Assembly (NCBI GenBank): GCA_028716965.1
Contig: JAQUOV010000005.1
Location: forward strand, 7,009 to 71,008
Length of the DNA stretch: 64,000 nt
Direction: 5' to 3'
Source of the DNA: Candidatus Omnitrophota bacterium
Lineage (GTDB): Bacteria; Omnitrophota; Gorgyraeia; Gygaellales; Profunditerraquicolaceae
Below the pieces are notes generated by a model that worked only from the letters and a program-made list of their open reading frames with translations, made no database searches and was not told the DNA's origin. This document shows, one piece after another, positions 4,357 through 34,635 of the stretch. Both the position numbers and the translations under genes were made by a program. Within the stretch, counting starts at the first letter, position 1. The number at the start of each line of letters is the position of its first letter.

Positions 4357-7300
4357 ATGCCTCATTCCGAGTTCGTCCATCTCCACCTGCATACTCAATA
4401 CAGCCTTCTTGACGGCGCCTGCCGTATCTCTGAAATACTGGCCATCGCTAAAAATTACAAAATGGATTCCCTGGCCATAACCGACCATGGCAATATGTTC
4501 GGGGCGATCGATTTTTACCTGGAGGCTCAAAAAGCCGGCATCAAACCTATTATCGGATGCGAAGTTTATGTCGCTCCGAAAAGCAGGCTGGATAAGAGCG
4601 GAGGCGGCATTGAAGATGCAGCTAACCATTTAATCCTGCTTGCGCGCGACGAATCCGGATATCAAAACCTGATTAAGCTGGTCTCCATCGGTTATTTGGA
4701 AGGGTTCTATTACCGGCCACGCATTGATAAAGAGGTCCTTTCCCAGCATGCCCAGGGATTAATCGGCTTATCCGCCTGCTTAAAAGGAGAGGTTGCCTGC
4801 CTTATTCAACAGAAACGTTTTAATGACGCTCTAAAAGCTGCGGACTCCTACCAGAATATATTCGGAAACGGGAACTTTTACCTGGAGCTGCAGGCGAATT
4901 CTATCCCCGAACAAAAGGTTGTAAACGACGCCTTGATTAAAATCTCCAAAGAATTATCCATCCCGCTGGTTGCTACCAACGACGTGCATTATCCTACTAA
5001 AGACAAGGCCCAGGCCCATGAGGCTTTATTATGCATCCAGACTCAGAGTACCCTTGATGACCCCAAACATATGCGTTTTCAGACGGAAGAATTCTATTTT
5101 CGTTCTCCTGAAGAAATGAAAGAATCATTCAGTCATTGCCCGGAGGCGATAAAGAATACGATAGAGATTGCTAAGCGCTGTAACCTGGAGCTGGACTTCA
5201 CGCAGATGCACCTGCCTAAATATACCCCGCCGGAGGGCAAAAACAAGGAAACCTTCCTGCTTGATTTATGCGAAAAGGGAGTGGAAGAGAAAGGACTTAA
5301 AGACGACCCCGAAGTACAGAAATCGCTCCAGCATGAACTAACAATTATCAAACATATGGGCTTTATCAGCTACTTCCTGATTGTCTGGGATTTCATCGCC
5401 TACGCTAAAAGCCAGGGGATACCGGTAGGTCCGGGAAGAGGCTCAGCCGCCGGAAGCCTGGTAAGTTATCTTCTGGGTATTACCGACCTTAACCCTTTAA
5501 AATACGGCTTACTCTTTGAAAGGTTCCTGAATCCCGAACGCATGGGCCTGCCGGATATAGATATTGATTTTTGCTACGAACGCAGGCAGGAAGTTATAGA
5601 TTATGTGACCAAAAAATACGGCAGAGAGAATGTCGCTCAAATCATCACCTTTGGTACGATGCAGGCGCGCGCGGTAATCAGGGATGTCGGCCGGGTTATG
5701 GGGATTGCTTACGCGGATGTTGACCGGATTGCCAAAATGATCCCGGCCGAACTTGATATGACCCTTAAAAAAGCACTGGAAAGCGAACCAGAGCTTAACA
5801 ACCTTTATAGGAATGACCCGCAAATAACTAAATTGATCAATACCGCTTTATCGCTGGAAGGGCTGAACCGGCACGCCTCTGTGCACGCCGCAGGCGTAAT
5901 CATCGCGGATAAACCGTTAAACAACTACATGCCGATATTCAAAACTGCCGATGACCAGGTTACTACCGGCTACAGCATGGGGACATTGGAAAAAATCGGC
6001 CTGCTTAAAGTAGATTTTCTCGGCCTAAAAACGCTTACGGTAATTGACGAAACACTGAAACTGGTAAAGAAAACCCGCAACATAGAGATTAACATCGAGA
6101 AGGTGCCGCTTGATGATAAGAATACATATAAACTGCTTGCTTCCAGCCACACTATCGGGGTGTTCCAGGTAGAAAGTTCGGGGATGCGTGACCTGTTAAA
6201 AAAACTTATCCCTGAACGTTTTGAAGACCTGATCGCCCTTTTGGCGCTCTACCGGCCGGGACCGATTGGTTCAGGAATGCTGGATGATTTTATGAAACGC
6301 AAACACGGATTAATCCCTATTAAATATGAACACCCGAAATTAGAGCCCATACTTAAAGAAACTTACGGGATCATGGTCTATCAGGAACAGATCATGCAGA
6401 TTGCGTCTACCCTGGCGGGGTTCACGCTTGCCCAGGCGGATATACTGCGCAAGGCCATGGGCAAAAAGATACCCGAAGTAATGGAGAAACAACGGAGCAA
6501 TTTTATCCGCGGATGCATTAAAAACGGGATAAAAGAAATGACCGCAACCAAGATCTTTGATTTAATAGAGTATTTTTCCGGATACGGCTTTAATAAGTCA
6601 CATTCAACCGCTTATGCCTTGATTTCTTACCGCACCGCCTATTTAAAAGCCAATTACCCCGTAGAATTCATGACGGCGCTTCTTACTTCAGAACGGGATA
6701 ACACCGACAAAATCGTAACCTACGTGAATGAAACCCAGCATATGGGGTTAAAAGTAAAACCTCCGGATATAAATGAAAGCGATGTACTTTTTAAGGTTGA
6801 AGATGAATCAACCATCCGTTTCGGGTTATTGGCGATAAAAAATGTCGGCAGGGGCGCTGCTGAATCCATTGTAAAAGCCAGGGAGGCGGGGAAGTTTAAA
6901 TCTTTGGAGGACCTCTGCGCCCGGATAGATTTAAGGTTGGCAAACCGCAAAGTCCTGGAAAGCCTGATTAAATGCGGCGCACTGGATTATTTTGGCGCCT
7001 CAAGGGCCAAAATGTTCGCCAGCCTTGATACAATACTGGAAAGGGCGCAGAGGATACAGAAAGAAAAATCCAGCGGGCAACTTTCTTTTTTTGACCAATC
7101 CCTAAACAACGGTTGTTTCGGAAAATCCCCGTTACTGGTCACCGATTGCAAGGAATGGCCTGAACCACAGCTGCTTTCTTTTGAAAAAGACATGCTGGGA
7201 TTCTATGTAAGCGGACATCCTTTAGCGCGATATGCCAAGCAGCTCAAACGCTTTGCCTCCTGCTCCACGGCCAGCCTGCATGAACATAAGGACCAGGATA

Positions 7301-7812
7301 CCATAAAAATCGTCGGCTTGATCGCAAAAATCAAACAAACCCTCACGCGTGCCAAACAGGAAAAAATGGCGATATTAAAACTGGAGGACTTAGACGGTGC
7401 GATAGAGGTGCTGGTCTTTCCCCGTGCCTTTGCTAAAGTGGGCCGGTACATTATGCCTAATACAATAGCGCATATACGCGGTACGTTAAATTTAACGGAA
7501 GATACCCCCAAAATAATCGCGGAAGACCTTTTTCCTTTTGAAGAGATCTACAAACTGATCACCGCTATGAGCATAAACCTTTCAGGGATCAAGGAGAATA
7601 TATTTGAATCTTTAAAAACCTTGCTTTCGGAACATAAAGGAAACGTGCCTATTTATTTACGCCTGGATACCTGCTTGTCGGACAGGCAGGTTCCAGCAAA
7701 ATCACGCGTACAAATGGTGGTAGGCGAGAACCTTTATGTTTTACCTTCAGAAAAATTAATCCAGGACCTTGATGAGCTGTTAGGGGAAGACCGGTTTTCC
7801 CTGGTTTTATAA
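4357..7812 (+). CDS. dnaE: DNA polymerase III alpha subunit
   Basis: 1151 aa. N-terminal PHP domain (FVHLHLHTQYSLLDGA). Polymerase core motifs (GPGRGSAAGSLVSY, PDIDIDF). OB-fold region. Typical length. Confidence 0.95.
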   Translation: MPHSEFVHLHLHTQYSLLDGACRISEILAIAKNYKMDSLAITDHGNMFGAIDFYLEAQKAGIKPIIGCEVYVAPKSRLDKSGGGIEDAANHLILLARDESGYQNLIKLVSIGYLEGFYYRPRIDKEVLSQHAQGLIGLSACLKGEVACLIQQKRFNDALKAADSYQNIFGNGNFYLELQANSIPEQKVVNDALIKISKELSIPLVATNDVHYPTKDKAQAHEALLCIQTQSTLDDPKHMRFQTEEFYFRSPEEMKESFSHCPEAIKNTIEIAKRCNLELDFTQMHLPKYTPPEGKNKETFLLDLCEKGVEEKGLKDDPEVQKSLQHELTIIKHMGFISYFLIVWDFIAYAKSQGIPVGPGRGSAAGSLVSYLLGITDLNPLKYGLLFERFLNPERMGLPDIDIDFCYERRQEVIDYVTKKYGRENVAQIITFGTMQARAVIRDVGRVMGIAYADVDRIAKMIPAELDMTLKKALESEPELNNLYRNDPQITKLINTALSLEGLNRHASVHAAGVIIADKPLNNYMPIFKTADDQVTTGYSMGTLEKIGLLKVDFLGLKTLTVIDETLKLVKKTRNIEINIEKVPLDDKNTYKLLASSHTIGVFQVESSGMRDLLKKLIPERFEDLIALLALYRPGPIGSGMLDDFMKRKHGLIPIKYEHPKLEPILKETYGIMVYQEQIMQIASTLAGFTLAQADILRKAMGKKIPEVMEKQRSNFIRGCIKNGIKEMTATKIFDLIEYFSGYGFNKSHSTAYALISYRTAYLKANYPVEFMTALLTSERDNTDKIVTYVNETQHMGLKVKPPDINESDVLFKVEDESTIRFGLLAIKNVGRGAAESIVKAREAGKFKSLEDLCARIDLRLANRKVLESLIKCGALDYFGASRAKMFASLDTILERAQRIQKEKSSGQLSFFDQSLNNGCFGKSPLLVTDCKEWPEPQLLSFEKDMLGFYVSGHPLARYAKQLKRFASCSTASLHEHKDQDTIKIVGLIAKIKQTLTRAKQEKMAILKLEDLDGAIEVLVFPRAFAKVGRYIMPNTIAHIRGTLNLTEDTPKIIAEDLFPFEEIYKLITAMSINLSGIKENIFESLKTLLSEHKGNVPIYLRLDTCLSDRQVPAKSRVQMVVGENLYVLPSEKLIQDLDELLGEDRFSLVL

Positions 7813-7843
7813 TTAAATTGCCTAAGCCAGGCGCTATTAATAC

Positions 7844-7872
7844 TTGACACTGTAACTTTTTGCTGTTATTAT
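7844..7872 (+). promoter_or_regulatory. Sigma-70-type promoter TTGACA-17-TATTAT upstream of HU gene
   Basis: TTGACA at 7844-7849, 17-nt spacer, TATTAT at 7867-7872. About 110-nt leader before the ATG. Confidence 0.5.
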
Positions 7873-7984
7873 GTTTAGCAATACACTCCGCGCCTACAAA
7901 GGATTGCGCGGGTGGATCTTTTTGGGCTAATACCCGGCCTTAAAGGAACGGCCGTGCACCCTTTGCGGGTAAGGAGGATAAAAG

Positions 7985-11574: not shown

Positions 11575-12528
11575 GTGGATAAAATAATCAAATTTGAATC
11601 TCAAGAAGAAGCGCAGTGGCTCTTTGGCGCCCATGACTCCAACACCAAGAGGATCGAAAAAGAGCTTAAGGTAAAGCTTACGCTGCGCGGAGGCCACTTG
11701 AAAATAAGCGGTACTGCCGGCAATATCAAGAAAGCTACCCAGCTGGTAGAATACCTGCTTAATGGCCTGCGATCAGGAAACGATGAGATCGGCAAAAGCG
11801 GGCTTTCCTATTTAATATCTAACCTTAAAAAGATTGACCAAAAACAACAGCAGGGTGCGGCCCTGCATACCGAGATCACGCGTACTTCCGGCGGCAGGCA
11901 TATCGGACCCAAGACCAGCGGCCAGAACGAGTATGTTGAGGCAATCAAAAAATACGATATTGTTTTTGGCGTCGGCCCCGCAGGTACGGGAAAAACTTAT
12001 TTAGCTATGGCCTGCGCGGTGGAAGCATTAAAAAAACAGGAGGTCCGGCGCATTATATTGACCCGGCCGGCTATAGAAGCAGGCGAATCCCTGGGGTTTC
12101 TCCCCGGAGATATGCAGGCTAAAATATCTCCTTACCTTAGACCGCTTTACGATGCCTTATACGACATGATGGAGGCTGAACGCATTGAGAAATATATAGA
12201 AACCGGCATAATCGAAGTAGCTCCGCTTGCTTACATGAGAGGAAGGACCCTTAATGACGCCTTTATTATCCTTGATGAAGCGCAGAACTGCACCGCCGAA
12301 CAAATGAAGATGTTCCTGACCCGTCTGGGTTTTGACTCCAAGGCGGTAATTACCGGAGATATGACCCAAAGCGATCTTCCGAATGCCCGGCCTATCGGCT
12401 TGCTTCAGGCTAAAGATATATTGAAAGAAATCAACGGCATAAAATTCATCTATTTTAGCGGCTCTGACGTAGTCCGGCACGCCCTGGTCCAGAGAATAAT
12501 CGAGGCTTATGAGAAAACTGTCCGTTAA
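11575..12528 (+). CDS. phoH: PhoH-family ATPase
   Basis: Walker A GPAGTGKTYLAMA. Conserved PhoH core (ILTRPAIEAGESLGFLPGD, ITGDMTQSDLP). Confidence 0.85.
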   Translation: MDKIIKFESQEEAQWLFGAHDSNTKRIEKELKVKLTLRGGHLKISGTAGNIKKATQLVEYLLNGLRSGNDEIGKSGLSYLISNLKKIDQKQQQGAALHTEITRTSGGRHIGPKTSGQNEYVEAIKKYDIVFGVGPAGTGKTYLAMACAVEALKKQEVRRIILTRPAIEAGESLGFLPGDMQAKISPYLRPLYDALYDMMEAERIEKYIETGIIEVAPLAYMRGRTLNDAFIILDEAQNCTAEQMKMFLTRLGFDSKAVITGDMTQSDLPNARPIGLLQAKDILKEINGIKFIYFSGSDVVRHALVQRIIEAYEKTVR

Positions 12529-13816
12529 AAACAATCTTTTTATTACAGGGCTTTGTGTTTTTATCTTCTTTTATAGCTATATTATCCATATGAGCCTGGC
12601 TATCCCCTTGTTTCTAATTATTGCCTATCTTTGTTTTTATAAAAATTTTTCTAAAATAAAAAACGCTAATTTAACTAATTTAACTTTTCTTTTCCTGGTT
12701 TCTTTCTCTATCGGGCATGCCATGCTTAAACATGGCCTCTCTTTTTACTATATCCCCATTGTAATCATCCCCATGCTCAGTGTATTATTATTTAATAACC
12801 CCGGGGTAGCTTATTTCTTATCCCTGGTTACCTCTCTATCGCTGGCATCTTTGACCGCCGAGCCATTTAAGGCCTGGCTGGTTTTTACGGCATCCTGCTT
12901 AACCTCGGTATTACTCTTAAAAAAGGCACATACGCGTACGGCGGTGATCAGGGCAGGCATCATAGCCGGCCTGATACAATTAATAAGTCTTATCCTTCTT
13001 GAACACCTTTGGATCAACCAGCCTGAAAGATATTTAATAATCCTGGTTAACAGCCTGGTCTCCGGAGTTATTGTCCTGGGGGTCCTTCCTATATTCGAGT
13101 ATTTGCTGCGCACAGTAACCAATATCAGCCTGTTGGAGCTGGCGGATTTTCACCACCCGATCTTGCAACGCATGATCCTTGAGGCCCCGGGGACATACCA
13201 CCATAGCCTTATCGTCGGTAATTTATCGGACACCGCCTGTACAGCCATCGGCGCTAACGGTCTATTAGCCAGGATCGGGGCATACTATCATGATATCGGT
13301 AAACTGCAGAAGCCGGAGTATTTCATTGAAAACCAGCAGATAAAAATGAACCTGCACGATACGCTCTCCCCCACAATGAGCAAACTGATTATTATGAACC
13401 ATATAAAAGAAGGCCTGGAGCTGGCTAAAAAATATTCTTTAAGCCCTGTGCTTTGGGACTTTATCCAACAGCATCACGGCAGCAGCCTGGTCTATTATTT
13501 CTACCGCCGGGCACTGGAAGGAAAAGAGGAGGACCAGGAGGTAACGGAAGAAGGGTTCCGTTACCCGGGGCCAAAACCAAATACAAAAGAGACGGCAATC
13601 GTCCTTTTGGCGGACTCTGTTGAGGCGGCCACGCGCACCTTAAAAGAACCAGCCCCTGCAAAGATTGAAGAGGTAGTGCGCAAGGTAATAAATAATAAGT
13701 TCATTGACGGCCAGCTTGACGAATGCGAGCTGACTTTAAAAGATATAGAGAAGATCTCCAGCGTCTTTACCAAGATATTAAGCGGCATATACCACAGCCG
13801 GGTAAGCTACTCCTAG
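12509..13816 (+). CDS. 7TM receptor with intracellular HD hydrolase (HDIG) domain
   Basis: Multiple N-terminal TM helices. HD motif (HHSLIVGNL...GAYYHDIGK). Classic position between phoH and ybeY. Confidence 0.75.
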   Translation: MRKLSVKNNLFITGLCVFIFFYSYIIHMSLAIPLFLIIAYLCFYKNFSKIKNANLTNLTFLFLVSFSIGHAMLKHGLSFYYIPIVIIPMLSVLLFNNPGVAYFLSLVTSLSLASLTAEPFKAWLVFTASCLTSVLLLKKAHTRTAVIRAGIIAGLIQLISLILLEHLWINQPERYLIILVNSLVSGVIVLGVLPIFEYLLRTVTNISLLELADFHHPILQRMILEAPGTYHHSLIVGNLSDTACTAIGANGLLARIGAYYHDIGKLQKPEYFIENQQIKMNLHDTLSPTMSKLIIMNHIKEGLELAKKYSLSPVLWDFIQQHHGSSLVYYFYRRALEGKEEDQEVTEEGFRYPGPKPNTKETAIVLLADSVEAATRTLKEPAPAKIEEVVRKVINNKFIDGQLDECELTLKDIEKISSVFTKILSGIYHSRVSYS

Positions 13817-13856
13817 GAAGAAAATAACGCTCCTTTCATCAGTCTGTTTTTCAAAA

Positions 13857-14279
13857 ATGATAAATATAACTATAAGCAACCTGCAAAAAAGATTGCCTAT
13901 ACACAGGGTACGCATAAAAAACCTTGTCCTTAAGGTCATTAAAGGAGAGGGCTTTAAGAAACCCGGGGATATTAATATCTGTTTTACGGATAATATCCTG
14001 ATTAAAAAACTCAATGCCGAATTCTTAAAAGCCGACAGGGTAACCGACGTGCTGGCTTTTAAGCTAAGCGATGAAAAGATCGGGGGCAGGCTGATTGCCG
14101 ATATTGTAATTTCTACCGACGCCGCCGCAAGGAACGCCCGGCTCTTCCGTACCAGCAGCGGAGAAGAATTACTGCTTTATGTTACCCACGGCATGCTGCA
14201 TATATTAGGATATGATGACCGATCCAAGGCCCAAACGCAACTGATGCGTAAAAAGGAAAGAGAATATGTCAATAGATAA
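13857..14279 (+). CDS. ybeY: rRNA maturation endoribonuclease YbeY
   Basis: 140 aa. Zinc-binding motif THGMLHILGYDD. Confidence 0.85.
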   Translation: MINITISNLQKRLPIHRVRIKNLVLKVIKGEGFKKPGDINICFTDNILIKKLNAEFLKADRVTDVLAFKLSDEKIGGRLIADIVISTDAAARNARLFRTSSGEELLLYVTHGMLHILGYDDRSKAQTQLMRKKEREYVNR

Positions 14280-15021
14280 AGCGCAAGCCTTTGTTTTAAA
14301 CAAGCGGGATATCCGTGAAACATCGATAATCGCGGAGTTCTACAGCAGGGAGTTTGGAAAGTTCAGCGGGCTGCTTAAAGGCATCCGCAGCGACCCGGAG
14401 AAATTCGCCTCTAACCTGGAACCATTTTCTCTAAACGAGGTTATCTTTTACAGGAAGACCCATTCCAGCCTGCACCTGGTAAGCCAGGCGGATAAACTTG
14501 ATAATTTTACCGGGATTCGCTCTAACATCGAAAAGGCGGTACAGGCCGGGTTCATGATGGAGCTGATTAACTCCATCATGCAGCCTGAAGATAAGAATGA
14601 AGAGATCTTTACCCTGGCCCTGGCAAGCCTTAAAGAGCTGGAAACCAATTATAACCCGGCTAAAATAGCTACCATATTCAAAATTAAGATACTTAACCTT
14701 TCAGGCTTTAAGCCCCACTTTGATTCTTGCGTTTCCTGCGCGGAGATAATCAACGGCCAGGCCAAATTCAGCCTTTCTTTAGGAGGCCTGCTTTGCCCGC
14801 GCTGTATGCAGAAAGACCCCGCAAGCCGCTCAATATTCCGCGGGACTATCGCTACGGTGCTTCATATTGAAAGAAACAGTTTTAATGCCAGCCTTAGCCT
14901 TGGGATGAACCCCCAGATAAAAAAAGAGCTGGATATAATCCTGAACGCATTTTTAAGTTTTCACCTGGGTAAAGAATTAAAAAGCCAGAGGCTGCTTAAT
15001 AAACTGGAGGTGACTGTATGA
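14266..15021 (+). CDS. recO: DNA repair protein RecO
   Basis: 251 aa. N-terminal OB fold. C4 zinc motif (CVSCAEII...CPRC). Confidence 0.8.
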   Translation: MSIDKAQAFVLNKRDIRETSIIAEFYSREFGKFSGLLKGIRSDPEKFASNLEPFSLNEVIFYRKTHSSLHLVSQADKLDNFTGIRSNIEKAVQAGFMMELINSIMQPEDKNEEIFTLALASLKELETNYNPAKIATIFKIKILNLSGFKPHFDSCVSCAEIINGQAKFSLSLGGLLCPRCMQKDPASRSIFRGTIATVLHIERNSFNASLSLGMNPQIKKELDIILNAFLSFHLGKELKSQRLLNKLEVTV

Positions 15022-15971
15022 AAATAGCCATTGTCGGCCCGGGAGCGATGGGGTGCCTTTTTGCCGCTTTTTTATCAAAATCAAAAGAAGAACTCTGGCT
15101 ATTGGATAAAGACAAGGAAAATGCCTCCCGGATAAATGAAATCGGGATATCCGTGGAAGGAGTATCCGGCGCTTGGCATGCAAAAATAAAAGCCACAGCC
15201 AATGCGCAGGATATCGGCAAAGCTGACCTTATACTTATATTCGTAAAATCATTCCATACCAAACAGGCGGTTGAACAGATCAAACCGCTCTTGCAGGAGA
15301 ATACCAAGATAATGACCCTGCAAAACGGTATCGGCAATACCGAAATTATCGCTGAATTAGCTGGGGAAAACAGGGTAATCGGCGGCATCACCAGTGAAGG
15401 GGCTACCCTGATAGAAACAGGGAAAATACGCCATGCCGGCCGGGGGGAAACCATTATCGGCACTCTGGACGGCAAAGCGCCGGTTGAAATACGCAGCATA
15501 CGCGAAACATTCAACAAGGTCGGTTTAGAGACCAGGATGTCCCGCGATATAAAGGGGCTGGCCTGGTCAAAATTGATCATCAATGCCGGGATAAATGCGC
15601 TAACCGCTATTACCAGGCTTCCTAACGGCAAACTGACTGAATTTGAAGGGACAAAAAGGATTTTAAGGGACGCGGTTACGGAGGCAACCCGCATTGCCAA
15701 AAGAAAACGCATAAAATTAATCTATGATGACCCCCTGGCAAAAGTGGAAGCGGTCTGCGAAGGCACATCCGCAAATATTTCGTCAATGTTACAGGATGTA
15801 TTAAAAAGAAAACGCACGGAGATCGATTTTATTAACGGAGTAATCGTACGCCTTGGGCAGGAATTAGGGATCGCCGTACCGACGAATAAGCTCCTGGTCG
15901 ACCTGGTAAAAACAATCGAATCAAGTTACAAATGGAGCCTGCCGGCCAAAAGCTCAATACCTAAAGTTTAA
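15018..15971 (+). CDS. panE: 2-dehydropantoate 2-reductase
   Basis: Rossmann GxGxxG start (MKIAIVGPGAMGCLFAAFL). ApbA/KPR C-terminal domain. Confidence 0.75.
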   Translation: MKIAIVGPGAMGCLFAAFLSKSKEELWLLDKDKENASRINEIGISVEGVSGAWHAKIKATANAQDIGKADLILIFVKSFHTKQAVEQIKPLLQENTKIMTLQNGIGNTEIIAELAGENRVIGGITSEGATLIETGKIRHAGRGETIIGTLDGKAPVEIRSIRETFNKVGLETRMSRDIKGLAWSKLIINAGINALTAITRLPNGKLTEFEGTKRILRDAVTEATRIAKRKRIKLIYDDPLAKVEAVCEGTSANISSMLQDVLKRKRTEIDFINGVIVRLGQELGIAVPTNKLLVDLVKTIESSYKWSLPAKSSIPKV

Positions 15972-15975
15972 TCCT

Positions 15976-16941
15976 ATGGCTTTTAGTCTAAGGATACGCA
16001 GATACCTGGTTATCTTCTTAATTACCGGTTGGGCGATAAGCTTGGCTTATTTTCTCCTGCATTCCAAAAAACCAAGACAGCCGCCTGAAGCCCCTGTTCG
16101 GCTTTACCGGGATAACCGCCTTCTAATGGGAACATTCTGGGAGGTTGTTTCTCCGCGTAAAGAGAGCGGCCCCATCGTTTTTACGGAGGTAAAACGTATT
16201 GAAAACCTGCTTAGCAAATACCTGCCGGACAGCGAAGTATCCTTGCTTAACCGCGCCGGAAAATTAAAAGCAACTCCGGATACGTTCTATGTTCTCAAGA
16301 GAGCAAAGGAATTTTGGCAGGAAAGTTCAGGGGCTTTTGACATTACCATCGCTCCATTAGTAGAGCTTTGGGGCTTTACCGGCCAAAAATATAATCTACC
16401 CAGTGAAGATTCGATTAAGGCCGCCTTGAAACTTGTAGGATGCGATAAAATTATTTTGCATGAAAAAGATAATGTGGTAGAATTTAAATTTCCCGGGATG
16501 AAGATTGACCTGGGGGCAATAGGCAAAGGTTTTGCCGTTGATTGTGCGGTCAAGATTTTGAAGGAAAATGGTATCGATAGCTGCCTGATTAACGCCGGCG
16601 GGCAAATTTACGCTCTAGGGGATAAATCCGGGTCTTGCTGGAAAGTAGCTATTCAGGACCCGCGCAGGCAGGAGATTTCAGGGACACTGGAATTAAAGGA
16701 CCAGTCGGTATCAACAAGCGGCGACTATGAGCAGTTCTTTTTTAAAGACGGCAAGCGTTACTGCCATATCATAAACCCTAAAAGCGGATATCCGGTTAAT
16801 AGCGGAATCACTTCCGTAACGATAGTGGCGGATTCGGCATTAGAGGCCGATGCCCTCTCTACAGCAGTATTCGTTCTCGGTAAAGAAAAGGGGGAGGAGT
16901 TGCTTAAAAAATTCCCCCGGGTAACAGCAAGGATACTCTAA
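15976..16941 (+). CDS. apbE: FAD:protein FMN transferase (ApbE family)
   Basis: N-terminal TM/signal. ApbE motifs (FDITIAPLVELWGF, DLGAIGKG, VSTSGDYEQ). Confidence 0.7.
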   Translation: MAFSLRIRRYLVIFLITGWAISLAYFLLHSKKPRQPPEAPVRLYRDNRLLMGTFWEVVSPRKESGPIVFTEVKRIENLLSKYLPDSEVSLLNRAGKLKATPDTFYVLKRAKEFWQESSGAFDITIAPLVELWGFTGQKYNLPSEDSIKAALKLVGCDKIILHEKDNVVEFKFPGMKIDLGAIGKGFAVDCAVKILKENGIDSCLINAGGQIYALGDKSGSCWKVAIQDPRRQEISGTLELKDQSVSTSGDYEQFFFKDGKRYCHIINPKSGYPVNSGITSVTIVADSALEADALSTAVFVLGKEKGEELLKKFPRVTARIL

Positions 16942-18288
16942 ATGAACATATTCAACCAAACGTTTCAGAAAAATATCTCCCCCGCAAAGATGTTTGTTTT
17001 CTTTTCCCGCTTGATGGACAAACCTGTCTTTGATAAAGACGGCGCAGAGGTCGGAGAGATCTACGATATCGTGGTAAAACCTTCCCAGGTATACCCGCTT
17101 TCAGACGGATTGATTATCCGCAAGGGTTTTTCCGGAAGAAAATATGCCCTGGTAGGGTGGCAGGATATCGAAAGGCTGGATAAACATGAGGCCAGGCTAA
17201 GGATAGATAAATCACGTCTAAATTTCGGCAAGATCCCCGAAGAAAAGAGAGAGATGACCTTAAGGCGCGATATACTGGATCAACAGGTGGTAGATACCCA
17301 TGAACATAAGGTCATCCGGGTAAACGATATCCAGCTTTTGGCTGTTGACCAGGCGTTAATGATCGCCCACGTGGACATCGGCACCCGCGGGATTTTTAGG
17401 CGGCTTGGTTTTGAAAAAAGTATTGATTTAATCGTAAAGTTCCTTAAACCCAAGGCGCACTATCTTACGAATGAATGCCTGATCTCCTGGAAATACATCC
17501 AGCCGCTTACCATTAATCCGGTAAGCATGACCATAAAGATAGATGTGCCGCAAAAGAATTTGGCTAATATTCCCGCGGCAGACTTAGGGGATATCTTCCT
17601 GGATTTAAATATCAACCACCAAATCGCTCTTTTTAAATCCCTCAATCTGGCAAATAAAACCAAGATATTCACCAATATTGATTTCAAGACCCAGCACTCC
17701 ATACTGGATGAACTCAGTGACCTTGAAATATCAGAATTGCTTAATAATATTCCGCCCGATGAAGCTACGGATTTCCTGGAAAAATTGCCGAGAGAAAAAA
17801 CCAAGCACGTCCTAAGCCTGATTGAAAATAAATACTCCAAGCGGCTTTCGCAACTTTTAGGATATTCCGGAGATTCCGCCGGAGGGCTGATGACTACAGA
17901 ATATATCGCTTTTACTAAGGATACGAGCATTCAAACAGTCCTGGACCGGATACGGGAATTCAAATTTAAATCCGAACCGGCACAGTTTATCTACATCATT
18001 GATGAAACCCACCATCTCATCAGCGCCACTAATTTCCGCAGGCTTATCCTGGCCAACCCCCAGGAACCTATACTCAACTATGCGTTTCCAAAGACGTATT
18101 TTGTGCATCTGGATTCCAGCATCAAAGAAGTCGCATATTTGATGGAAAAATACAAATATTTCGCTATACCGGTAGTAGATGAAGAAAATGTTTTGCAGGG
18201 GATCGTAACCGTTGATGATATCCTGAGCCAGTTAATTGCTTTTGCCTGGCGCAGGCTGAAAAAAATAAAGATATTTCAGAATACATGA
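16942..18288 (+). CDS. Soluble MgtE-N domain / tandem-CBS protein with N-terminal PRC-barrel-like repeats (no transmembrane pore)
   Basis: 448 aa. MgtE N-terminal helical domain (LNNIPPDEATDFLEKLPREKTKHVLSLIE). CBS pair (TTEYIAF...AIPVVDEENVLQGIVTVDDIL). No hydrophobic C-terminal segment. Stop overlaps the next gene start (ATGA). Confidence 0.7.
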   Translation: MNIFNQTFQKNISPAKMFVFFSRLMDKPVFDKDGAEVGEIYDIVVKPSQVYPLSDGLIIRKGFSGRKYALVGWQDIERLDKHEARLRIDKSRLNFGKIPEEKREMTLRRDILDQQVVDTHEHKVIRVNDIQLLAVDQALMIAHVDIGTRGIFRRLGFEKSIDLIVKFLKPKAHYLTNECLISWKYIQPLTINPVSMTIKIDVPQKNLANIPAADLGDIFLDLNINHQIALFKSLNLANKTKIFTNIDFKTQHSILDELSDLEISELLNNIPPDEATDFLEKLPREKTKHVLSLIENKYSKRLSQLLGYSGDSAGGLMTTEYIAFTKDTSIQTVLDRIREFKFKSEPAQFIYIIDETHHLISATNFRRLILANPQEPILNYAFPKTYFVHLDSSIKEVAYLMEKYKYFAIPVVDEENVLQGIVTVDDILSQLIAFAWRRLKKIKIFQNT

Positions 18289-19529
18289 AGAAACTAAAGA
18301 GTTTTTGGGCAAAAACATTGATCTTCCTGTCGGTAATGGGGCCGGGAATTATTACCGCCAATGTCGATAATGACGCCGGGGGCATAACTACATATTCAGT
18401 TGCCGGCGCGCACTTCGGCTATGCGCTGATCTGGTCATTTATTCCGATTATTATCGCCCTGGTAATCATCCAGGAGATGTCCAGCCGCATGGCGGTAGTT
18501 ACCGGAAAAGGCCTGGCAGATTTAATCCGCGAGGAGTTTGGGGTACGCGTAACCTTTTACGCTATGACGGTGCTGATCTTCTCTAATATCTTCAACACTA
18601 TTTCGGAGTTCGCCGGCATTGCCGCCAGCGCGGAGCTGTTCGGGATCAGCAAATACCTGTTAGTGCCTGTCTGCGCGTTATTTGTCTGGTGGCTGATCGT
18701 AAAGGGGACTTATAAATCGGTTGAAAAAGTATTCCTGGTAGCCTGCTTATTCTATCTTTGCTACATAGTCTCCGGCTTTCTCTCAAAGCCGGACTGGAAG
18801 ATGGTGGCCGCAAGCTCAATTTCACCAAGCCTGCAGTTTGACAAGGCTTATATTTTTATGCTGATCGGGGTAATCGGGACCACGATTGCTCCCTGGATGC
18901 AATTTTACCAGCAATCTTCAGTAGTAGAGAAAGGGATACGGCTTGAGAATTACAAATACAGCCGCCTGGATGTCATCATCGGGTCCTTCGTAGTTAATAT
19001 TATTGCCATCTTTATTGTCATCGTATGCGCCAATACTCTTTTTACGCACGGCATAAGGATTGAGACGGCAAAAGACGCTGCCCTTGCCCTAAAGCCCCTG
19101 GCCGGGCAATACTGTTTTTATCTGTTTGCCTTCGGGCTGTTGAACGCCTCGGTCTTCTCCGCCTGTATTTTACCTCTCTCAACGGCATATTCGGTATGCG
19201 AAGGGATGGGCTGGGAGATAGGAGTAAACCGCACATTCAGGGAGGCGCCGCAGTTTTACAGCTTATATACCGCTATTATTGCAATCGGGGCGGCGATCAT
19301 ATTAATTCCCGGGGTAAAACTTGTGCCGGTAATGCTCGTTTCCCAGGCCAGCAACGGAATACTGCTTCCTTTTGTATTGATATTCATGCTTCTCCTGGTA
19401 AACAATAAAAGATTGATGGGCAAACATACCAACACCGGCTTGTATAATTTTTGCTCCATATTGATCATCGGAGCAATGATCATCCTTTCTTTGATACTGT
19501 TCTTTACTACGTTCTTTAACGGGAAATAA
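18285..19529 (+). CDS. Nramp-family divalent cation transporter with non-canonical TM1 motif (possible Nramp-related Mg transporter)
   Basis: 414 aa, about 11 TM helices. Nramp-like N-terminus (GPGIITANVDNDAGG) where DAGG replaces the canonical DPGN metal-binding motif. Confidence 0.7.
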   Translation: MKKLKSFWAKTLIFLSVMGPGIITANVDNDAGGITTYSVAGAHFGYALIWSFIPIIIALVIIQEMSSRMAVVTGKGLADLIREEFGVRVTFYAMTVLIFSNIFNTISEFAGIAASAELFGISKYLLVPVCALFVWWLIVKGTYKSVEKVFLVACLFYLCYIVSGFLSKPDWKMVAASSISPSLQFDKAYIFMLIGVIGTTIAPWMQFYQQSSVVEKGIRLENYKYSRLDVIIGSFVVNIIAIFIVIVCANTLFTHGIRIETAKDAALALKPLAGQYCFYLFAFGLLNASVFSACILPLSTAYSVCEGMGWEIGVNRTFREAPQFYSLYTAIIAIGAAIILIPGVKLVPVMLVSQASNGILLPFVLIFMLLLVNNKRLMGKHTNTGLYNFCSILIIGAMIILSLILFFTTFFNGK

Positions 19530-19530
19530 A

Positions 19531-20376
19531 ATGACTGTAAACGAAATAAAAAATCTGAAGGGCAGGCGCAAGATCACCATGTTAACCGCTTATGATTACC
19601 CTATGGCAGAATTAGTTGACCGGGCCGGTATAGATATGATCCTGGTAGGCGATTCCCTGGCTAATGTGGTCCTGGGGCTTGATTCAACCACCAAGGTCGG
19701 CATGGCGGAGATGCTGCACCATACAAAAGCCGTCAGAAGAGGCGTAAAGAACTCGTTGCTTATTGCAGATATGCCATATAATTCCTACCAGCTTGACCCC
19801 GGTGAATCCGTCAAAAACGCGCAACGCTTCCTCAACGAAGCAGGGGCGCAGGCAGTAAAAGTAGAGTGGTTTGAGCAATGTTTAGAGGTAACCGGCAAGA
19901 TTATCAAAGCAGGCATACCCGTAATGGGGCATATCGGCCTGACTCCGCAGACCGCGGATAAGATCGGAGGTTTTAAGGTCCAGGGCAGAGAGGCAAAAGC
20001 TGCCCGCATCCTGATTGAACAGGCAATAGAGCTGGAAAAACAAGGATGCTTTGCCATAGTCCTGGAATGCGTGCCGGATAAGATTGCCGCTCTGATTACC
20101 GGTAAGATAAAAATACCCACAATCGGTATCGGCGCCGGGGCATATTGCGACGGACAAGTCCTGGTTATTAACGACATGCTCGGGTTATTTGCGCGCCATA
20201 CCCCTAAGTTCGTCAAGAAGTACGCCGACCTTTCACCGCTGATCTTAAAAGCAGTGGAAGATTTTAAAAATGAGGTCACCCAGGTTAAATTCCCTGACAG
20301 CCAATACTCCTTCAGCATCAAGGAAGAAGAGCTTAAGAAAATTGAAGCGCTGGAGATAAAACAAGATGGCAACTAA
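19531..20376 (+). CDS. panB: 3-methyl-2-oxobutanoate hydroxymethyltransferase
   Basis: KPHMT motifs (MLTAYDYPMA, VGDSLANVVLG, GHIGLTPQ). Confidence 0.9.
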   Translation: MTVNEIKNLKGRRKITMLTAYDYPMAELVDRAGIDMILVGDSLANVVLGLDSTTKVGMAEMLHHTKAVRRGVKNSLLIADMPYNSYQLDPGESVKNAQRFLNEAGAQAVKVEWFEQCLEVTGKIIKAGIPVMGHIGLTPQTADKIGGFKVQGREAKAARILIEQAIELEKQGCFAIVLECVPDKIAALITGKIKIPTIGIGAGAYCDGQVLVINDMLGLFARHTPKFVKKYADLSPLILKAVEDFKNEVTQVKFPDSQYSFSIKEEELKKIEALEIKQDGN

Positions 20377-21082
20377 AAAAACCCTTAAGCTGGTAAGTAA
20401 AGTTATCGTATTAGGTTTTTGCCTGGTTTTTATTATCAAGTTCGCAGGGCAAAATATCTTAAGGCAATATATCATCTACGGCATTGGCGACTGCAAGAAT
20501 ATCCCTGTGCTCTGCAAGCAACCGGATGAAAAAACTTTAACTCCCGAAATCAACGAAGAATACATTAACAGCTTAATCCCGCAGGTATTCCCTAAAATGT
20601 CAATCTCCATACCCAAGGGCTTTAACATAGTGCAGGAACTGATCAAAAGGAGATACTACAAGAAAAAACAGCCGGAGAATAACGCTATGATTTACCTCTT
20701 GCGCCAGGAACCGGGCGCCTTTATCAAGCTTTATCCGGATGTAAAAAAACAGGGTATATCCAATAATTATGAGTTTATCCGCAGGCTCATGTACGCCAAC
20801 CTTAACAAAATAAATAATATTACCGATGCCTTTTTTATTATCATGAAAAGCGTCTTTACTCCGGATATCGGACCGCAAAGCATCTGCCGGATGGTCGAAT
20901 TCAAGCTGGGGGAAAAAAGGGGCTTTGTCAACTACACTATGGCCAGGCCGAATAATTATTTTGACTGCAATGTACTTGATGCCAAAGGGAATTTTTTTAA
21001 GGTGTACATCCGGGATGCCGGCGCCAGGCTGGATTTGAACAAGGTGTTCGCGATAATTTCAACGCTGAAACCAATAGACTAA
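20366..21082 (+). CDS. Hypothetical membrane-anchored protein
   Basis: 238 aa. N-terminal hydrophobic helix. No recognisable motif. 11-nt overlap with the panB stop. Confidence 0.4.
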   Translation: MATKKTLKLVSKVIVLGFCLVFIIKFAGQNILRQYIIYGIGDCKNIPVLCKQPDEKTLTPEINEEYINSLIPQVFPKMSISIPKGFNIVQELIKRRYYKKKQPENNAMIYLLRQEPGAFIKLYPDVKKQGISNNYEFIRRLMYANLNKINNITDAFFIIMKSVFTPDIGPQSICRMVEFKLGEKRGFVNYTMARPNNYFDCNVLDAKGNFFKVYIRDAGARLDLNKVFAIISTLKPID

Positions 21083-29683: not shown

Positions 29684-31219
29684 ATGCTCAATCTGGCTTT
29701 CATCTTCCATATGCACCAACCGTATTACAAGAACCTCCTGACACAGGAGAGCGATCTGCCCTGGGTCAGGCTGCACGGGGTCAAGGATTACCTTGATATG
29801 GTGCAGATATTGGGAAAATTCCCCAAGATCAAACAAACCTTTAATGTCGTGCCGTCTTTATTTGAACAGGTAGAAGACTACAATAACGGCCTGGTAAAAG
29901 ACAAGTTCAGCGAACTGACCAAGAAACCTGCCAGCCAGCTATCTAAACAGGATAAAGACTTTATCCTGCAGAATTTCTTTTCCATAAATAGAGAGAGGGT
30001 CATCGCAACCTTCCCGCGTTATTATGAGCTTTACTTCAAGAAACAACGCCACCAGGAGTTCTCTAACCAGGATTACCTTGACCTGCAGCTTTACTTTAAC
30101 TTAGCCTGGATCGACCCTTCATTCCGGGAAGGTATCAGCGAACTAAAAAAAATTAGCGCCAAGGAAAGGTTCTTTAGCGAAGAAGACAAACATATTGTTT
30201 TAGAGCAGCAACTGCGCATATTAAAAGAGATCATCCCCGCATACCGGCTTTTTAAAGAAAACAACCAGATTGAAATAAGCGTTACCCCGTATTATCACCC
30301 GATACTGCCTTTATTATTCAATACCAACATCGCCAAAGAAGCGAACAAAAAAACGGTTTTGCCAAAAAAGGAGTTCAGCTACCCGCTTGACGCAAAAGAG
30401 CATATTGACAGCGCAATTGAATTTTATAAACAAAGGTTTAGCACAGCACCGGAAGGGATGTGGCCCTCGGAAGAAGCGGTAAGCGAACATATCCTGCCGT
30501 TTATCATTGCATCCGGGATAAAATGGATCGTTACCGACGAAGCGATACTATTTAAATCTTTGAAGATTAAAAAGCGCAATACTAAGCTGCTTTATCAACC
30601 GCACCTTTTAAAGAGGAAGGAAGGAGAGCTTAAAGTAGTCTTTCGCGACCGTAACCTTTCGGACCTAATCGGTTTTAATTACCACGGCATGAAGGAGCTT
30701 GACGCGGTAAACAACTTTATGGGGCATCTGGAAAATATCCATAAAGTATTCAAGGAGAGGGATATCCTGGTTACTATTGCCATGGACGGAGAAAACGCCT
30801 GGGAATTTTTCCGTAACGACGGACATGATTTCCTGGAATTATTTTATCAGCGTATCTCGGAAAGCGATTTTGTGAAAACAACAACCATCGGAGAATATCT
30901 GAAGCTTTACCCTCCAAAAAATGAAATCCAGCGTTTAAGCGCCGGCTCATGGATTTACGGAGAATTCGGTAAATGGATAGGTAATCCCAGCAAGGTAAAA
31001 TACTGGGAATGGCTGGCGGATGCCAGGAGAACATTGGGAAAATCCAAAGAACCGGTAAACCAGCTCGCCTGGAAACAAATGCATATTTTAGAGGGAAGCG
31101 ACTGGTTCTGGTGGGCCGGAGAAGACCCTGACGGCTCATTTGACCGCCTGTTCCGGCTGCACTTAGCGAATTTCTATAAATTGATCGGACAGAACGCGCC
31201 GGCATATCTAAACCCTTGA
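29684..31219 (+). CDS. Glycoside hydrolase family 57 protein (size and motifs consistent with GH57 alpha-glucan branching/processing enzyme)
   Basis: 511 aa. GH57 N-terminal signature LAFIFHMHQPYY and conserved VTPYYHPILPLL. Family assignment by motif only. Confidence 0.8.
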   Translation: MLNLAFIFHMHQPYYKNLLTQESDLPWVRLHGVKDYLDMVQILGKFPKIKQTFNVVPSLFEQVEDYNNGLVKDKFSELTKKPASQLSKQDKDFILQNFFSINRERVIATFPRYYELYFKKQRHQEFSNQDYLDLQLYFNLAWIDPSFREGISELKKISAKERFFSEEDKHIVLEQQLRILKEIIPAYRLFKENNQIEISVTPYYHPILPLLFNTNIAKEANKKTVLPKKEFSYPLDAKEHIDSAIEFYKQRFSTAPEGMWPSEEAVSEHILPFIIASGIKWIVTDEAILFKSLKIKKRNTKLLYQPHLLKRKEGELKVVFRDRNLSDLIGFNYHGMKELDAVNNFMGHLENIHKVFKERDILVTIAMDGENAWEFFRNDGHDFLELFYQRISESDFVKTTTIGEYLKLYPPKNEIQRLSAGSWIYGEFGKWIGNPSKVKYWEWLADARRTLGKSKEPVNQLAWKQMHILEGSDWFWWAGEDPDGSFDRLFRLHLANFYKLIGQNAPAYLNP

Positions 31220-31254: not shown

Positions 31255-31827
31255 ATGGACAAGAAAGAAATCTACGAGCATCTGGCAAATATTTACCTGG
31301 ATGCCTCTTCTAAGTCTTCAAAGAAAAAACGCAAATCAAAGGCGTATCCGAAACCAATCCGCAATTTAATTCTCGTCGGTTTGCTGCTGGTTTTAGGCTT
31401 AGGCAGCGGTATTGCTTATTCCAACCTCAATTACCGCAATCATAACTCCCAGATCACTTTACTTTTATTCCAGGATAGCGCAAAATTAAATTTCAATTTT
31501 GACCCTGCTAAAAAAGAAACTTTCTCCCTGGACCTTAAACAGTTAACTCTCTCCAAATACAAGAGTTTAGCTTTTTCCTTAAGAAAAGATAACCCCAAAG
31601 CCAATTTTGCATTGAGGGTAGAATTCATTAACCGTTTCAACGAAAAGTCTGAGGTTTATATAAAAGATATTTCGGCTAAATGGAGAAATCACCAGATAGA
31701 TTTAAGCCGCTTTGCGAAAATCAATGACTGGGACCAGATGAAGACATTGTCCTTCAGTATTGAAGAATGGAACTCAAAAGAAAAATCCGGCATTCTTTAT
31801 ATAGATAACATCAAAGTAGTCAAGTAG
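31255..31827 (+). CDS. Hypothetical bitopic membrane protein: basic N-terminal tail, one TM, C-terminal beta-sandwich-like domain
   Basis: SSKSSKKKRKSKAYPKP basic segment. TM LILVGLLLVLGLGSGIAY. C-terminus ends ILYIDNIKVVK, reminiscent of carbohydrate-binding jelly-roll modules. Confidence 0.4.
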   Translation: MDKKEIYEHLANIYLDASSKSSKKKRKSKAYPKPIRNLILVGLLLVLGLGSGIAYSNLNYRNHNSQITLLLFQDSAKLNFNFDPAKKETFSLDLKQLTLSKYKSLAFSLRKDNPKANFALRVEFINRFNEKSEVYIKDISAKWRNHQIDLSRFAKINDWDQMKTLSFSIEEWNSKEKSGILYIDNIKVVK

Positions 31828-31894
31828 CGATAATAATTCTTATTTAACGCGATTCTTGCCGATAAGCAAGGATAAATTCCTAAGGAGGGAGCTC

Positions 31895-32986
31895 ATGCGT
31901 ATCATATCGATCGCTAATCAAAAAGGCGGTTGCGGTAAAACAACCACGTCCATAAATTTAGCGGCTGCTTTGGCAGCTAATAACCGCAGGGTCCTGCTAA
32001 TCGACCTTGACCCGCAGGCGCATGCTACAAGCGGCTTGAATATCAAAACAGAAGTAAGTATTTATAACGTGCTTTCCAAGATTACGCACAAGAAATGCCG
32101 GCTGGAAGAGATCATCCAGAACCTGGGCGAGAACCTTGATATCGCCCCGTCCAGCCTGGTCTTAAGCACCCTGGAGCAGGAACTAAGCGGCGAGATCGGC
32201 CGGGAAAGCCGCCTCTCAGAGATTATTAATGATTTCAGGAATAATTATGATTATATCCTGATCGATTGCCCGCCGAACCTTGGGATTTTGACAATTAATG
32301 CCATACGCTCATCCAGCGAGATTGTTATACCGGTTGAAGCCAGCAGATTTTCCCTGGAAGGGCTAAGCCAGTTAATCAGCATCGTAAACCTGGTCAAAGA
32401 AAGATTGGGCCACAACGTAGAGTTCCGCGTCCTGGTCACTAACTTTGATTCGCGCTTACAGCATTCTTTTAAAATGCTTGAGAAAATTAAAGCTGATTAC
32501 CGGAAGATGATGTTCTCCACCATCATCCATGTAAACGTAAAATTAAAAGAGGCGCAGAACGAGGGACTGAACGTATTTACTTATGACAAATACTGCCGGG
32601 GGGCAAAAGATTATTTCAGCCTTTCGCGCGAAATCATCACCCAGGAAAATCCGCCTTCCGGGCAGACCACGGAAAAAACACTGGAAAAACGCATGAATGA
32701 GATTTTAAAAGACACCCTGCCGAAATTAAATGAAATCACGCTTAAGGTTAACGCCCCGCAGGCAAAGGAAGTTTACGTGGCAGGTGAATTCAATAACTGG
32801 AAGCTGGATGAAAACAGCCGTATGGAACAAAATAACGGTTCCTGGAGTAAAAACATAAACCTTAAGAAGGGTAAATACCGCTATCGTTTTGTTATTGACG
32901 GTAACTGGTCCGAAGACCCGGACAACCCGCTGAAACAAGTGAATCCTTACGGCACCATGGATTCTCTGCTGGAAGTTAAAAAATGA
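31895..32986 (+). CDS. ParA/MinD-family ATPase fused to C-terminal CBM48 / AMPK-beta glycogen-binding domain
   Basis: Deviant Walker A (IANQKGGCGKTTTSINLAAAL). Walker B ILIDCPP. C-terminal ~85 aa (VYVAGEFNNWKLDE...GKYRYRFVIDGNWSEDPDNP) matches the AMPK1_CBM/CBM48 pattern. ATG at 31895 is preceded by TAAGGAGGG. The ORF-track TTG start at 31856 is less likely. Confidence 0.8.
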   Translation: MRIISIANQKGGCGKTTTSINLAAALAANNRRVLLIDLDPQAHATSGLNIKTEVSIYNVLSKITHKKCRLEEIIQNLGENLDIAPSSLVLSTLEQELSGEIGRESRLSEIINDFRNNYDYILIDCPPNLGILTINAIRSSSEIVIPVEASRFSLEGLSQLISIVNLVKERLGHNVEFRVLVTNFDSRLQHSFKMLEKIKADYRKMMFSTIIHVNVKLKEAQNEGLNVFTYDKYCRGAKDYFSLSREIITQENPPSGQTTEKTLEKRMNEILKDTLPKLNEITLKVNAPQAKEVYVAGEFNNWKLDENSRMEQNNGSWSKNINLKKGKYRYRFVIDGNWSEDPDNPLKQVNPYGTMDSLLEVKK

Positions 32987-33024
32987 AATTCTTGCACTGA
33001 AGTTAACGCAAGGTAAACAAACTT

Positions 33025-33351
33025 ATGACAAAACTAGAAGACGAGAATATAATCCGGGAAGGAAAGTTTTTCGCCATAATTTCATATGTTTCCTTTCTTT
33101 GTATAATCACCCTGATCCTTAAAAAAGACAACAGGTTCGCTCTTTACCATGCCAAACAGGGCCTGGTGCTTTTTGTGATGGAGGTTGCGGCTTTTATACT
33201 GTCAATTATACCTTTGCTGGGCTGGCTAATCGGGGTCTTCGGCTATGCCTTGTTCTTTCTGGTATCCATCTGGGGTATTATGCAGTCTGCTTTAGGGATA
33301 TACTGCCGCATACCGGCAGTAACCGAGATATCTGAAAAGGTAATCCTTTAA
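33025..33351 (+). CDS. Small integral membrane protein (DUF4870-like)
   Basis: 108 aa, about 3 TM helices. Motif ISYVSF...YHAKQGLVLF. Confidence 0.5.
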   Translation: MTKLEDENIIREGKFFAIISYVSFLCIITLILKKDNRFALYHAKQGLVLFVMEVAAFILSIIPLLGWLIGVFGYALFFLVSIWGIMQSALGIYCRIPAVTEISEKVIL

Positions 33352-33375
33352 GTCTTAACAAAAGGAGGTGTCGCT

Positions 33376-33864: not shown

Positions 33865-33867
33865 TTT

Positions 33868-33897
33868 TAGGGCCTGTTGAACACGCAACAGGCCCTA
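33868..33897. repeat. Perfect 12-bp inverted repeat hairpin with T-tract upstream and A-tract downstream (non-canonical orientation for a terminator)
   Basis: TAGGGCCTGTTG-AACACG-CAACAGGCCCTA. TTTT precedes and AAAAAA follows on the + strand. Confidence 0.5.
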
Positions 33898-33998
33898 AAA
33901 AATAGGCATTTATAAGTAAGTACTCGTAATAAATACCAATTGATTATAGGTAAGTACCCATAACAAACCTGGCGTTAAACGCAGGTAAAACTAGGTAA

Positions 33999-34340: not shown

Positions 34341-34635
34341 TCTAATCTTGAATTAAAACATTAAAATCAGGCAGTTTTGTTGGCATTCTTTGGTCTGATT
34401 TGCTCTATTCTGCTGCTGGTGGTACTTCCTATAATATATCTTATGTTAACTTATCAATCTTGCGTAAGTGTGTATAAGCCTATGGGGGACAACAGTTTGT
34501 TTAGAGGTGTTTTTAACTTGTGGAAAAGGCATTTCTTCTTTACTTAAACTTACCGCTATTCTTTAAGCTTAGCAGTTTGACGAAAATAATCATATAAAGG
34601 CCACTGGATTTTTTGCGTTTAATTGATTATTTATT

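Follow-up and report, generated by a model that had tools for sequence, protein, structure and literature searches.

We examined a stretch of 64,000 nucleotides (the window) from a metagenome-assembled genome (MAG) of Candidatus Omnitrophota (GCA_028716965.1, contig JAQUOV010000005.1, positions 7,009 to 71,008 of the forward strand), in which two overlapping genes encode a soluble protein, here called the partner, and a membrane transporter of the SLC11/Nramp family. This Omnitrophota locus belongs to the published operon type that combines an mgtE-like fragment with nrmT. We consider it reasonably likely that the pair comprises an Mg2+/Mn2+ uptake transporter of the Nramp-related magnesium transporter (NRMT) type, co-produced with an MgtE-derived cation sensor that probably regulates it in trans. 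The two genes are at present annotated as 'CBS domain-containing protein' and 'Nramp family divalent metal transporter', names that could be made more precise.

The transporter matches the Pfam Nramp family over its full length (E = 4e-103) and has 11 hydrophobic segments resembling transmembrane (TM) helices, in agreement with the Nramp-family protein of about 11 TM segments that a preliminary description of this DNA had proposed. Its best match among all PDB sequences is EleNRMT from Eggerthella lenta (7qia; E = 1e-114, 387 bits), with 46% identity over 395 aligned residues, whereas canonical MntH and DraNramp structures align at ~1e-22 (best canonical match 4e-22, 82 bits) and identity to DraNramp is 26%. 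The NRMT clade carries DxxG on helix alpha-1 and TxxA/T on alpha-6, replacing DxxN and A/CxxM (PMC8806188). TM1 of the Omnitrophota transporter reads N-V-D-N-D30-A-G-G33 where DraNramp has D-P-G-N, and its alpha-6 reads T199-T-I-A202 where the DraNramp counterpart is A-T-V-M. P203-W204 follows the latter motif, with W204 equivalent to EleNRMT W229 and located at the position of the DraNramp proton-pathway histidine; a second alpha-6b position is occupied by Q209, and by Asn in EleNRMT. EleNRMT residues D55, G58, E133, T224, A227, W229 and Q379 are all identical in the transporter, a set that takes in every EleNRMT position examined by mutation or singled out in that study (PMC8806188). The preliminary description had read NVDNDAGG in place of DPGN as the mark of an altered, NRMT-type metal site, and the alignment bears this out, with both TM1 and TM6 metal-site residues matching EleNRMT and differing from those of canonical Mn/Fe Nramps. 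On these sequence comparisons the transporter almost certainly belongs to the NRMT clade, and we hold the domain architecture of the locus with the same assurance.

Pfam recognises three types of domain in the partner: PRC (PF05239, residues 19-90, E = 2.9e-6; 27.6 bits, above the 21.2 cut-off), MgtE_N (residues 211-309, E = 4.5e-21) and CBS (E = 1.5e-14). Residues ~205-441 align to solved MgtE cytoplasmic domains with E-values from 3e-32 to 2e-28. The mgtE model TIGR00400 is matched only at profile positions 20-252 of 450, the cytoplasmic part, scoring 167 bits, below its cut-off of 232.75; the C-terminal, five-helix MgtE pore domain PF01769 has no Pfam match in the partner, and no TM segment was found in it, the Kyte-Doolittle maximum over 19-residue windows being 1.47. 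The partner is therefore not an MgtE channel and corresponds only to its regulatory module, as the preliminary description had supposed in assigning it an MgtE N domain and a CBS pair without a pore. A protein of 100% identical sequence, from a Candidatus Omnitrophica MAG, is present at NCBI.

The PRC-barrel-like segments claimed at the N-terminus were likewise recovered, and in two copies. Profile-profile comparison with hhalign relates residues 15-100 to residues 101-205 (94%, E = 1e-7), and residues 1-205, when modelled from a diverse alignment (mean predicted local distance difference test score [pLDDT] 79.8, predicted template modelling score [pTM] 0.76), most resemble, among PDB structures, the tandem-PRC proteins CdpB1/CdpB2 (Foldseek E ~1e-6) and, after these, single PRC barrels. 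Judged by these comparisons and the model, the N-terminal 205 residues of the partner are two PRC barrels. Barrel 2 holds the best-conserved motif of this half of the protein, LDxQxVD...RVND...VDxGxRGxxRRLG...W (residues 113-183, window positions 17278-17490), which includes several conserved acidic and basic residues. In the family alignment (A2; 120 sequences, 24-59% identity), D129 is invariant and D113, Q115, D118, R126, V127, N128, D145, G150, R153, R154 and W183 are each conserved in at least 90% of sequences. The motif might act in contacts with another protein surface or as an additional site for cations.

When 1.84 billion cluster representatives (clusters at 50% identity) were searched exhaustively, 382 clusters of partner homologues emerged at E <= 1e-30, and almost every one of the best 150 aligns over partner residues ~15-440. 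These 150 comprised 123 full-length pore-less proteins (405-498 aa), 18 longer proteins of 593-656 aa and nine fragments. The longer proteins, here termed PRC-MgtE (e.g. P0280, P0281 and P0328), consist of PRC, MgtE_N and CBS domains with a membrane domain after them at the C-terminus; in three of five that were scanned, Pfam identified the PF01769 pore, and 4-6 TM-like segments are present in 17 of the 18. As these proteins carry the same module joined to the MgtE pore, it serves there as the regulatory domain of a channel.

The restriction of the mgtE match to the cytoplasmic half is also what would be expected had the upstream gene been a decaying or truncated mgtE pseudogene lying next to an Nramp gene by accident. 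We regard this as having a negligible probability and exclude it, given that full-length pore-less homologues (405-450 aa) occur in hundreds of clusters down to ~25% identity, that the open reading frame (ORF) is unbroken and encodes a protein conserved at 65-88% identity in 15 genomes, and that a tblastn search of the window with pore domains detected no pore remnant (best E = 0.48). Moreover, the C-terminal helix is systematically changed rather than degraded, and linkage to NRMT is kept across phyla.

This linkage was found wherever we looked for it. The pair is present in all 15 related loci, each from a Candidatus Omnitrophota MAG (some labelled Planctomycetales), within a conserved block panE-apbE-partner-nrmT-panB in which the transporter is 86-96% and the partner 65-88% identical. 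A family profile retrieved distant relatives at 30-33% identity, among them Limnocylindrales (Chloroflexota) and Nitrospirota, and in four of four of their loci an Nramp gene lies directly downstream, with a 4-bp gene overlap in two of them and otherwise unrelated neighbours. The partnered distant transporters show NDAGG and GTTI(A/T)P(W/Y) in every case where the sequence extends over this region. An arrangement recurring in 15/15 near and 4/4 distant loci is not due to chance, and the check on co-occurrence of MgtE-N/CBS genes with Nramp-like genes that the preliminary description had proposed gives a positive outcome. The conserved unit is the partner-NRMT pair, the panE, apbE and panB context being lineage-specific.

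At the junction of the two genes the stop codon of the partner overlaps the start codon of the transporter in the sequence ATGA, as had been noted previously. The ATGA junction recurs in nine Omnitrophota loci and in one Chloroflexota locus (L016), with GTGA in locus L019, and no Shine-Dalgarno-like motif was seen upstream of the transporter start (18285). Since the overlap is conserved and such a motif is absent, the sequence is compatible with translational coupling of partner and transporter.

Two conserved acidic sites would connect the partner to Mg2+ sensing. Using the Mg2+ sites defined for Thermus thermophilus MgtE (PMC5882242), a channel in which the N domain and the CBS domains are known to work as a Mg2+-dependent gate, site Mg4 (D91 and D247) corresponds to partner D273 and D426, which are Asp in 104/120 and 103/120 family members, respectively, and site Mg6 (D95) to D277, Asp in 116/120. 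The output end of the module is different. The C-terminal helix of the partner begins with D426 and continues with hydrophobic, Trp and basic residues (ILSQLIAFAWRRLKKIKIFQNT; net charge +5), in a region that is acidic in MgtE: the plug-helix residues E255, E258 and D259 are replaced by F434, R437 and R438, with Lys/Arg the commonest residues in the family at the E258 and D259 positions. Measured in ungapped tails, over the 22 residues that come behind the conserved Asp of CBS2, the net charge is -3 to -8 in pore-bearing relatives (18/18) and -4 in T. thermophilus MgtE, compared with a median of +2 in the pore-less proteins, a set that may include truncated gene calls of pore-bearing genes, and +5 in the window partner with its WRRLKK segment (Mann-Whitney p = 1.6e-11). 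At the sequence level, this pattern fits a retained Mg2+-dependent closure of N domain and CBS pair combined with an altered contact of the output helix.

Regarding the substrate, EleNRMT carries Mg2+ and Mn2+ but not Ca2+, without proton coupling, and changing its T224 to Ala abolishes Mg2+ transport while affecting Mn2+ transport mildly (PMC8806188). By analogy with EleNRMT, Mg2+ is probably a physiological substrate of the Omnitrophota transporter. The pair might instead serve mainly manganese, or more generally transition-metal, uptake, with the partner sensing Mn2+ or some other signal rather than Mg2+. Three observations favour a manganese system: Mn2+ transport by EleNRMT itself, the lack of an M-box riboswitch at the Omnitrophota locus, and the behaviour of the Acidobacterium capsulatum (A. 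capsulatum) NrmT, which has an MgtE-like neighbour and no M-box and which rescued a Mn2+ mutant fully and a Mg2+ mutant weakly (PMC4072509). Nevertheless, T199, the counterpart of the threonine needed for Mg2+ transport, is conserved, the soft Met ligand of canonical Nramps is replaced by Ala202, and the acidic Mg4 and Mg6 residues of the partner constitute hard-ligand sites of the type that binds millimolar Mg2+ in MgtE. We judge a primarily manganese-directed system to be unlikely. In the preliminary description the MgtE-like partner was taken as an independent pointer to Mg2+ as substrate; the identity of the partner module stands, but the module alone does not prove Mg2+ specificity, as the A. 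capsulatum transporter, which also has such a partner, behaved mainly as a Mn2+ transporter.

A working model of the pair would run as follows. By homology with EleNRMT, an NRMT with an enlarged metal site (D30, G33, T199, A202 and Q354) would import Mg2+ in a largely hydrated state, as well as Mn2+, with no coupling to protons, and the partner would be made together with it from the overlapping reading frames. The partner would sense cytoplasmic Mg2+ at the acidic sites between its N domain and CBS pair (D273 and D426 as Mg4, D277 as Mg6), and Mg2+ binding would close or clamp it in the manner of the same module in the MgtE channel. This state would be passed in trans to the transporter, probably through the basic C-terminal helix, the PRC barrels or both, such that uptake drops once cytoplasmic Mg2+ is sufficient. 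Because EleNRMT is uncoupled, some control of flux seems necessary.

Whether the partner gates the transporter is, on the evidence of sequence, an evenly balanced question, and several points weigh against the working model or against Mg2+ as the substrate. Two inter-subunit sites of MgtE are lost in the partner, namely Mg5 (D226 and D250, here K405 and S429, positions that vary in the family) and Mg7 (E59, here K241; Glu/Asp in 87/120). Contact between the partner and the NRMT is something we infer from sequence. The full-length partner model, built from a shallow alignment of Omnitrophota sequences only, has low confidence (pLDDT 68, pTM 0.36), so that the arrangement of the domains is not readable from it. 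Rfam detected neither an M-box nor any other riboswitch, either across the whole window at the gathering threshold or in positions 14000-20500 at E <= 1, and no M-box was found in six related loci; according to Shin et al., high-affinity Mg2+ transport is a property of only a subset of NrmTs, often riboswitch-linked (PMC4072509). Co-expression of the A. capsulatum pair in Bacillus subtilis (B. subtilis), the sole published test of the partner's role, left the rescue of Mg2+ transport unchanged, and Clostridium acetobutylicum (C. acetobutylicum) NrmTs function without a partner (PMC4072509). Finally, the ATP-site residues defined for MgtE (PMC5529423) are only partly kept, R366 and an aromatic residue at position 406 being retained.

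The last of these points, together with the absence of a detectable co-expression effect, also bears on the idea that the partner has no gating role and is instead a metal chaperone or buffer, a PRC-barrel scaffold that places the transporter, or a CBS-based sensor of adenine nucleotides or energy status. Shin et al. themselves offered a chaperone alternative, PRC barrels are typically modules for protein-protein interaction and assembly (the best structural match, CdpB1/CdpB2, is a heterodimer), and CBS pairs often bind adenosine ligands. Yet key ATP-contact residues are changed in the partner (D188 to R367 and N203 to F382), related proteins have the same module joined in cis to the MgtE pore, a setting in which N domain and CBS domains form a Mg2+-dependent gate, and the tight, often overlapping, cross-phylum pairing of the genes points to a stoichiometric partner. 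A non-gating role is in our assessment rather improbable, slightly more so than a manganese system.

Returning to regulation in trans, we tentatively suggest a broader possibility, less secure than gating itself: that the tandem-PRC, MgtE_N and CBS assembly is a portable Mg2+-sensing gate, used in cis in PRC-MgtE and in trans on the unrelated LeuT-fold NRMT. In cis it would act on the MgtE pore through the acidic plug helix, and in trans on the NRMT through the re-charged basic and Trp-containing C-terminal helix and the conserved second PRC barrel. If this is correct, the partner would be the first soluble subunit to regulate an SLC11 transporter, and the arrangement would explain how a cell with an uncoupled Mg2+ uniporter avoids overload. 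Regulation as such has been proposed in print before; what is new is the modular reuse in cis and in trans, along with the PRC barrels and the reversal of charge. The widely conserved MgtE-like partner has been an obvious candidate regulator of NRMTs since 2014, and the Omnitrophota locus adds no new principle to it. What the family analysis supplies is a set of experimental handles: a compact conserved pair, the conserved acidic residues D273, D277 and D426 and, as candidate contact surfaces, the basic WRR helix and the invariant motif of barrel 2. The pore-bearing PRC-MgtE cousins offer a natural control for the function of the module in cis. Coordinates of the features discussed are collected in Table 1; the two ORFs of the preliminary description, of which the first was given as 448 aa, are both present.

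Table 1 Features of the partner-NRMT locus, in window coordinates
Feature	Position	Strand	Description or basis
Soluble partner gene	16942..18288	+	448 aa; tandem PRC barrels, MgtE_N, CBS pair and basic C-terminal helix
PRC barrel 1 (residues 19-90)	16996..17211	+	Pfam PF05239; modelled, pLDDT ~86-96; PDB PRC fold matches
PRC barrel 2 (residues ~107-200)	17260..17541	+	hhalign to barrel 1; model; helical insertion at 148-176
MgtE_N domain (residues 211-309)	17572..17868	+	Pfam E = 4.5e-21; contains D273 and D277
CBS pair (residues ~313-423)	17878..18210	+	Pfam CBS; MgtE structure alignment; secondary structure of model
C-terminal helix, equivalent of MgtE plug helix (residues 424-448)	18211..18285	+	Alignment with T. 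thermophilus MgtE
ATGA start/stop overlap of partner and transporter genes	18285..18288	+	Read from sequence
NRMT-clade SLC11/Nramp transporter gene	18285..19529	+	414 aa, 11 TM; Pfam Nramp and EleNRMT match
Alpha-1 metal-site motif D30-A-G-G33 (NRMT 'DxxG')	18372..18383	+	Aligned to EleNRMT D55-A-G-G58
Alpha-6 metal-site motif T199-T-I-A202 (NRMT 'TxxA')	18879..18890	+	Aligned to EleNRMT T224-T-I-A227

The pair is embedded in an unbroken run of plus-strand genes (11575-20376) in the order phoH, 7TM-HD, ybeY, recO, panE, apbE, partner, nrmT and panB. These genes abut or overlap, with spacers around the pair of 0, -4 and +1 bp, a packing typical of a streamlined genome, which makes co-transcription a poor indicator of shared function. 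A functional link of the pair to the flanking panE, apbE and panB was considered and rejected, as this synteny is confined to the Omnitrophota clade and absent from the distant loci; we attribute it to genome compaction.

Several of the other loci showed features of their own. In the Limnocylindrales (Chloroflexota) MAG locus L016, two NRMT paralogues lie in tandem (5296-6564 and 6633-7976) behind a single partner gene, both paralogues carrying NDAGG and GTTITPW. Three Nitrospirota-like loci have a gene of 200 aa with a faint PhoU match on the minus strand, divergent from and upstream of the pair (L017, 3116-3718; L018, 1047-1649; L020, 3121-3723). The NRMT match falls into two tblastn segments in two Omnitrophota MAG loci (L014, 1954-3166; L009, 7344-8488), which suggests a frameshift or indel, whether from assembly error or gene decay.

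Elsewhere in the window, a gene at 31856-32986 (+) encodes a ParA/MinD-type ATPase (AAA_31, CbiA) that bears a fused glycogen-binding module (AMPK1_CBM/CBM48) at its C-terminus. A gene for a GH57 glycoside hydrolase (29684-31219, +) is a short way upstream, separated from it by an ORF of 190 aa, and the fusion protein could be a positioning ATPase for glycogen granules. This intervening ORF (31255-31827, +) and another of 238 aa (20366-21082, +) have no Pfam match at E <= 1e-5. Gene orientation turns from all plus to all minus at ~33000-34600, where cumulative GC skew also peaks; the region could be replication-terminus-like, or could simply reflect coding-strand bias.

The NrmT family was named by Shin et al. 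(2014, PLoS Genet, PMC4072509), who reported that most nrmT genes adjoin a gene for an MgtE cytoplasmic domain and speculated that the MgtE-like partner provides cytoplasmic feedback regulation or chaperone activity. The 'sensor-gated two-component transporter' is thus a hypothesis published earlier as speculation, and the preliminary description is a correct rediscovery of it. Full-text literature searches returned no follow-up of the MgtE-like partner and, among the papers listed, no use of the term 'PRC-barrel' alongside MgtE, and a 2025 preprint on MgtE classification (10.1101/2025.05.26.656215) mentions neither PRC-type nor pore-less forms. In the literature searched we did not find the tandem PRC barrel, the pore-bearing PRC-MgtE cousins, or the retention of Mg4 and Mg6 together with a basic plug helix.

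Compared with the operons of Shin et al. (C. acetobutylicum Ca_c0685, in which the partner is split into two genes, and A. capsulatum ACP2976/2977, with ACP2976 as the partner), the Omnitrophota locus has the same gene order, with the MgtE-module gene directly upstream of nrmT, and it shares with the A. capsulatum pair the lack of an M-box. It differs in coming from an uncultivated genome, in lying within the housekeeping run panE-apbE-pair-panB and in its 4-bp overlap; half of its 448-aa partner is a tandem PRC barrel, an extension that the partners of Shin et al. may or may not share. EleNRMT (Ramanadane et al. 2022, eLife, PMC8806188; PDB 7qia, 7qic, 7qji and 7qjj) is similar to the Omnitrophota transporter in size and number of helices, and the two have in common the DxxG and TxxA motifs, the Q379 and E133 equivalents and the replacement of the alpha-6b His by Trp, by which the proton pathway is lost. 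EleNRMT was studied as an isolated monomer, in a paper that does not discuss a partner protein, and has transport data, whereas the Omnitrophota transporter is known from its sequence. T. thermophilus MgtE (PDB 2yvx, 2yvy and 2zy9) aligns with the partner through the N domain, the CBS pair and the helix that follows, over ~235 residues (E ~1e-28), and the acidic Mg4 (D91/D247) and Mg6 (D95) sites are common to both. The partner in turn lacks the pore, has lost Mg5 and Mg7, has a basic and hydrophobic plug helix and a partly conserved ATP site, and carries ~200 additional N-terminal residues forming the two PRC barrels. The pore-bearing PRC-MgtE proteins are alignable to partner residues ~19-430 at ~30% identity but, unlike the partner, continue into PF01769 and keep the acidic plug region.

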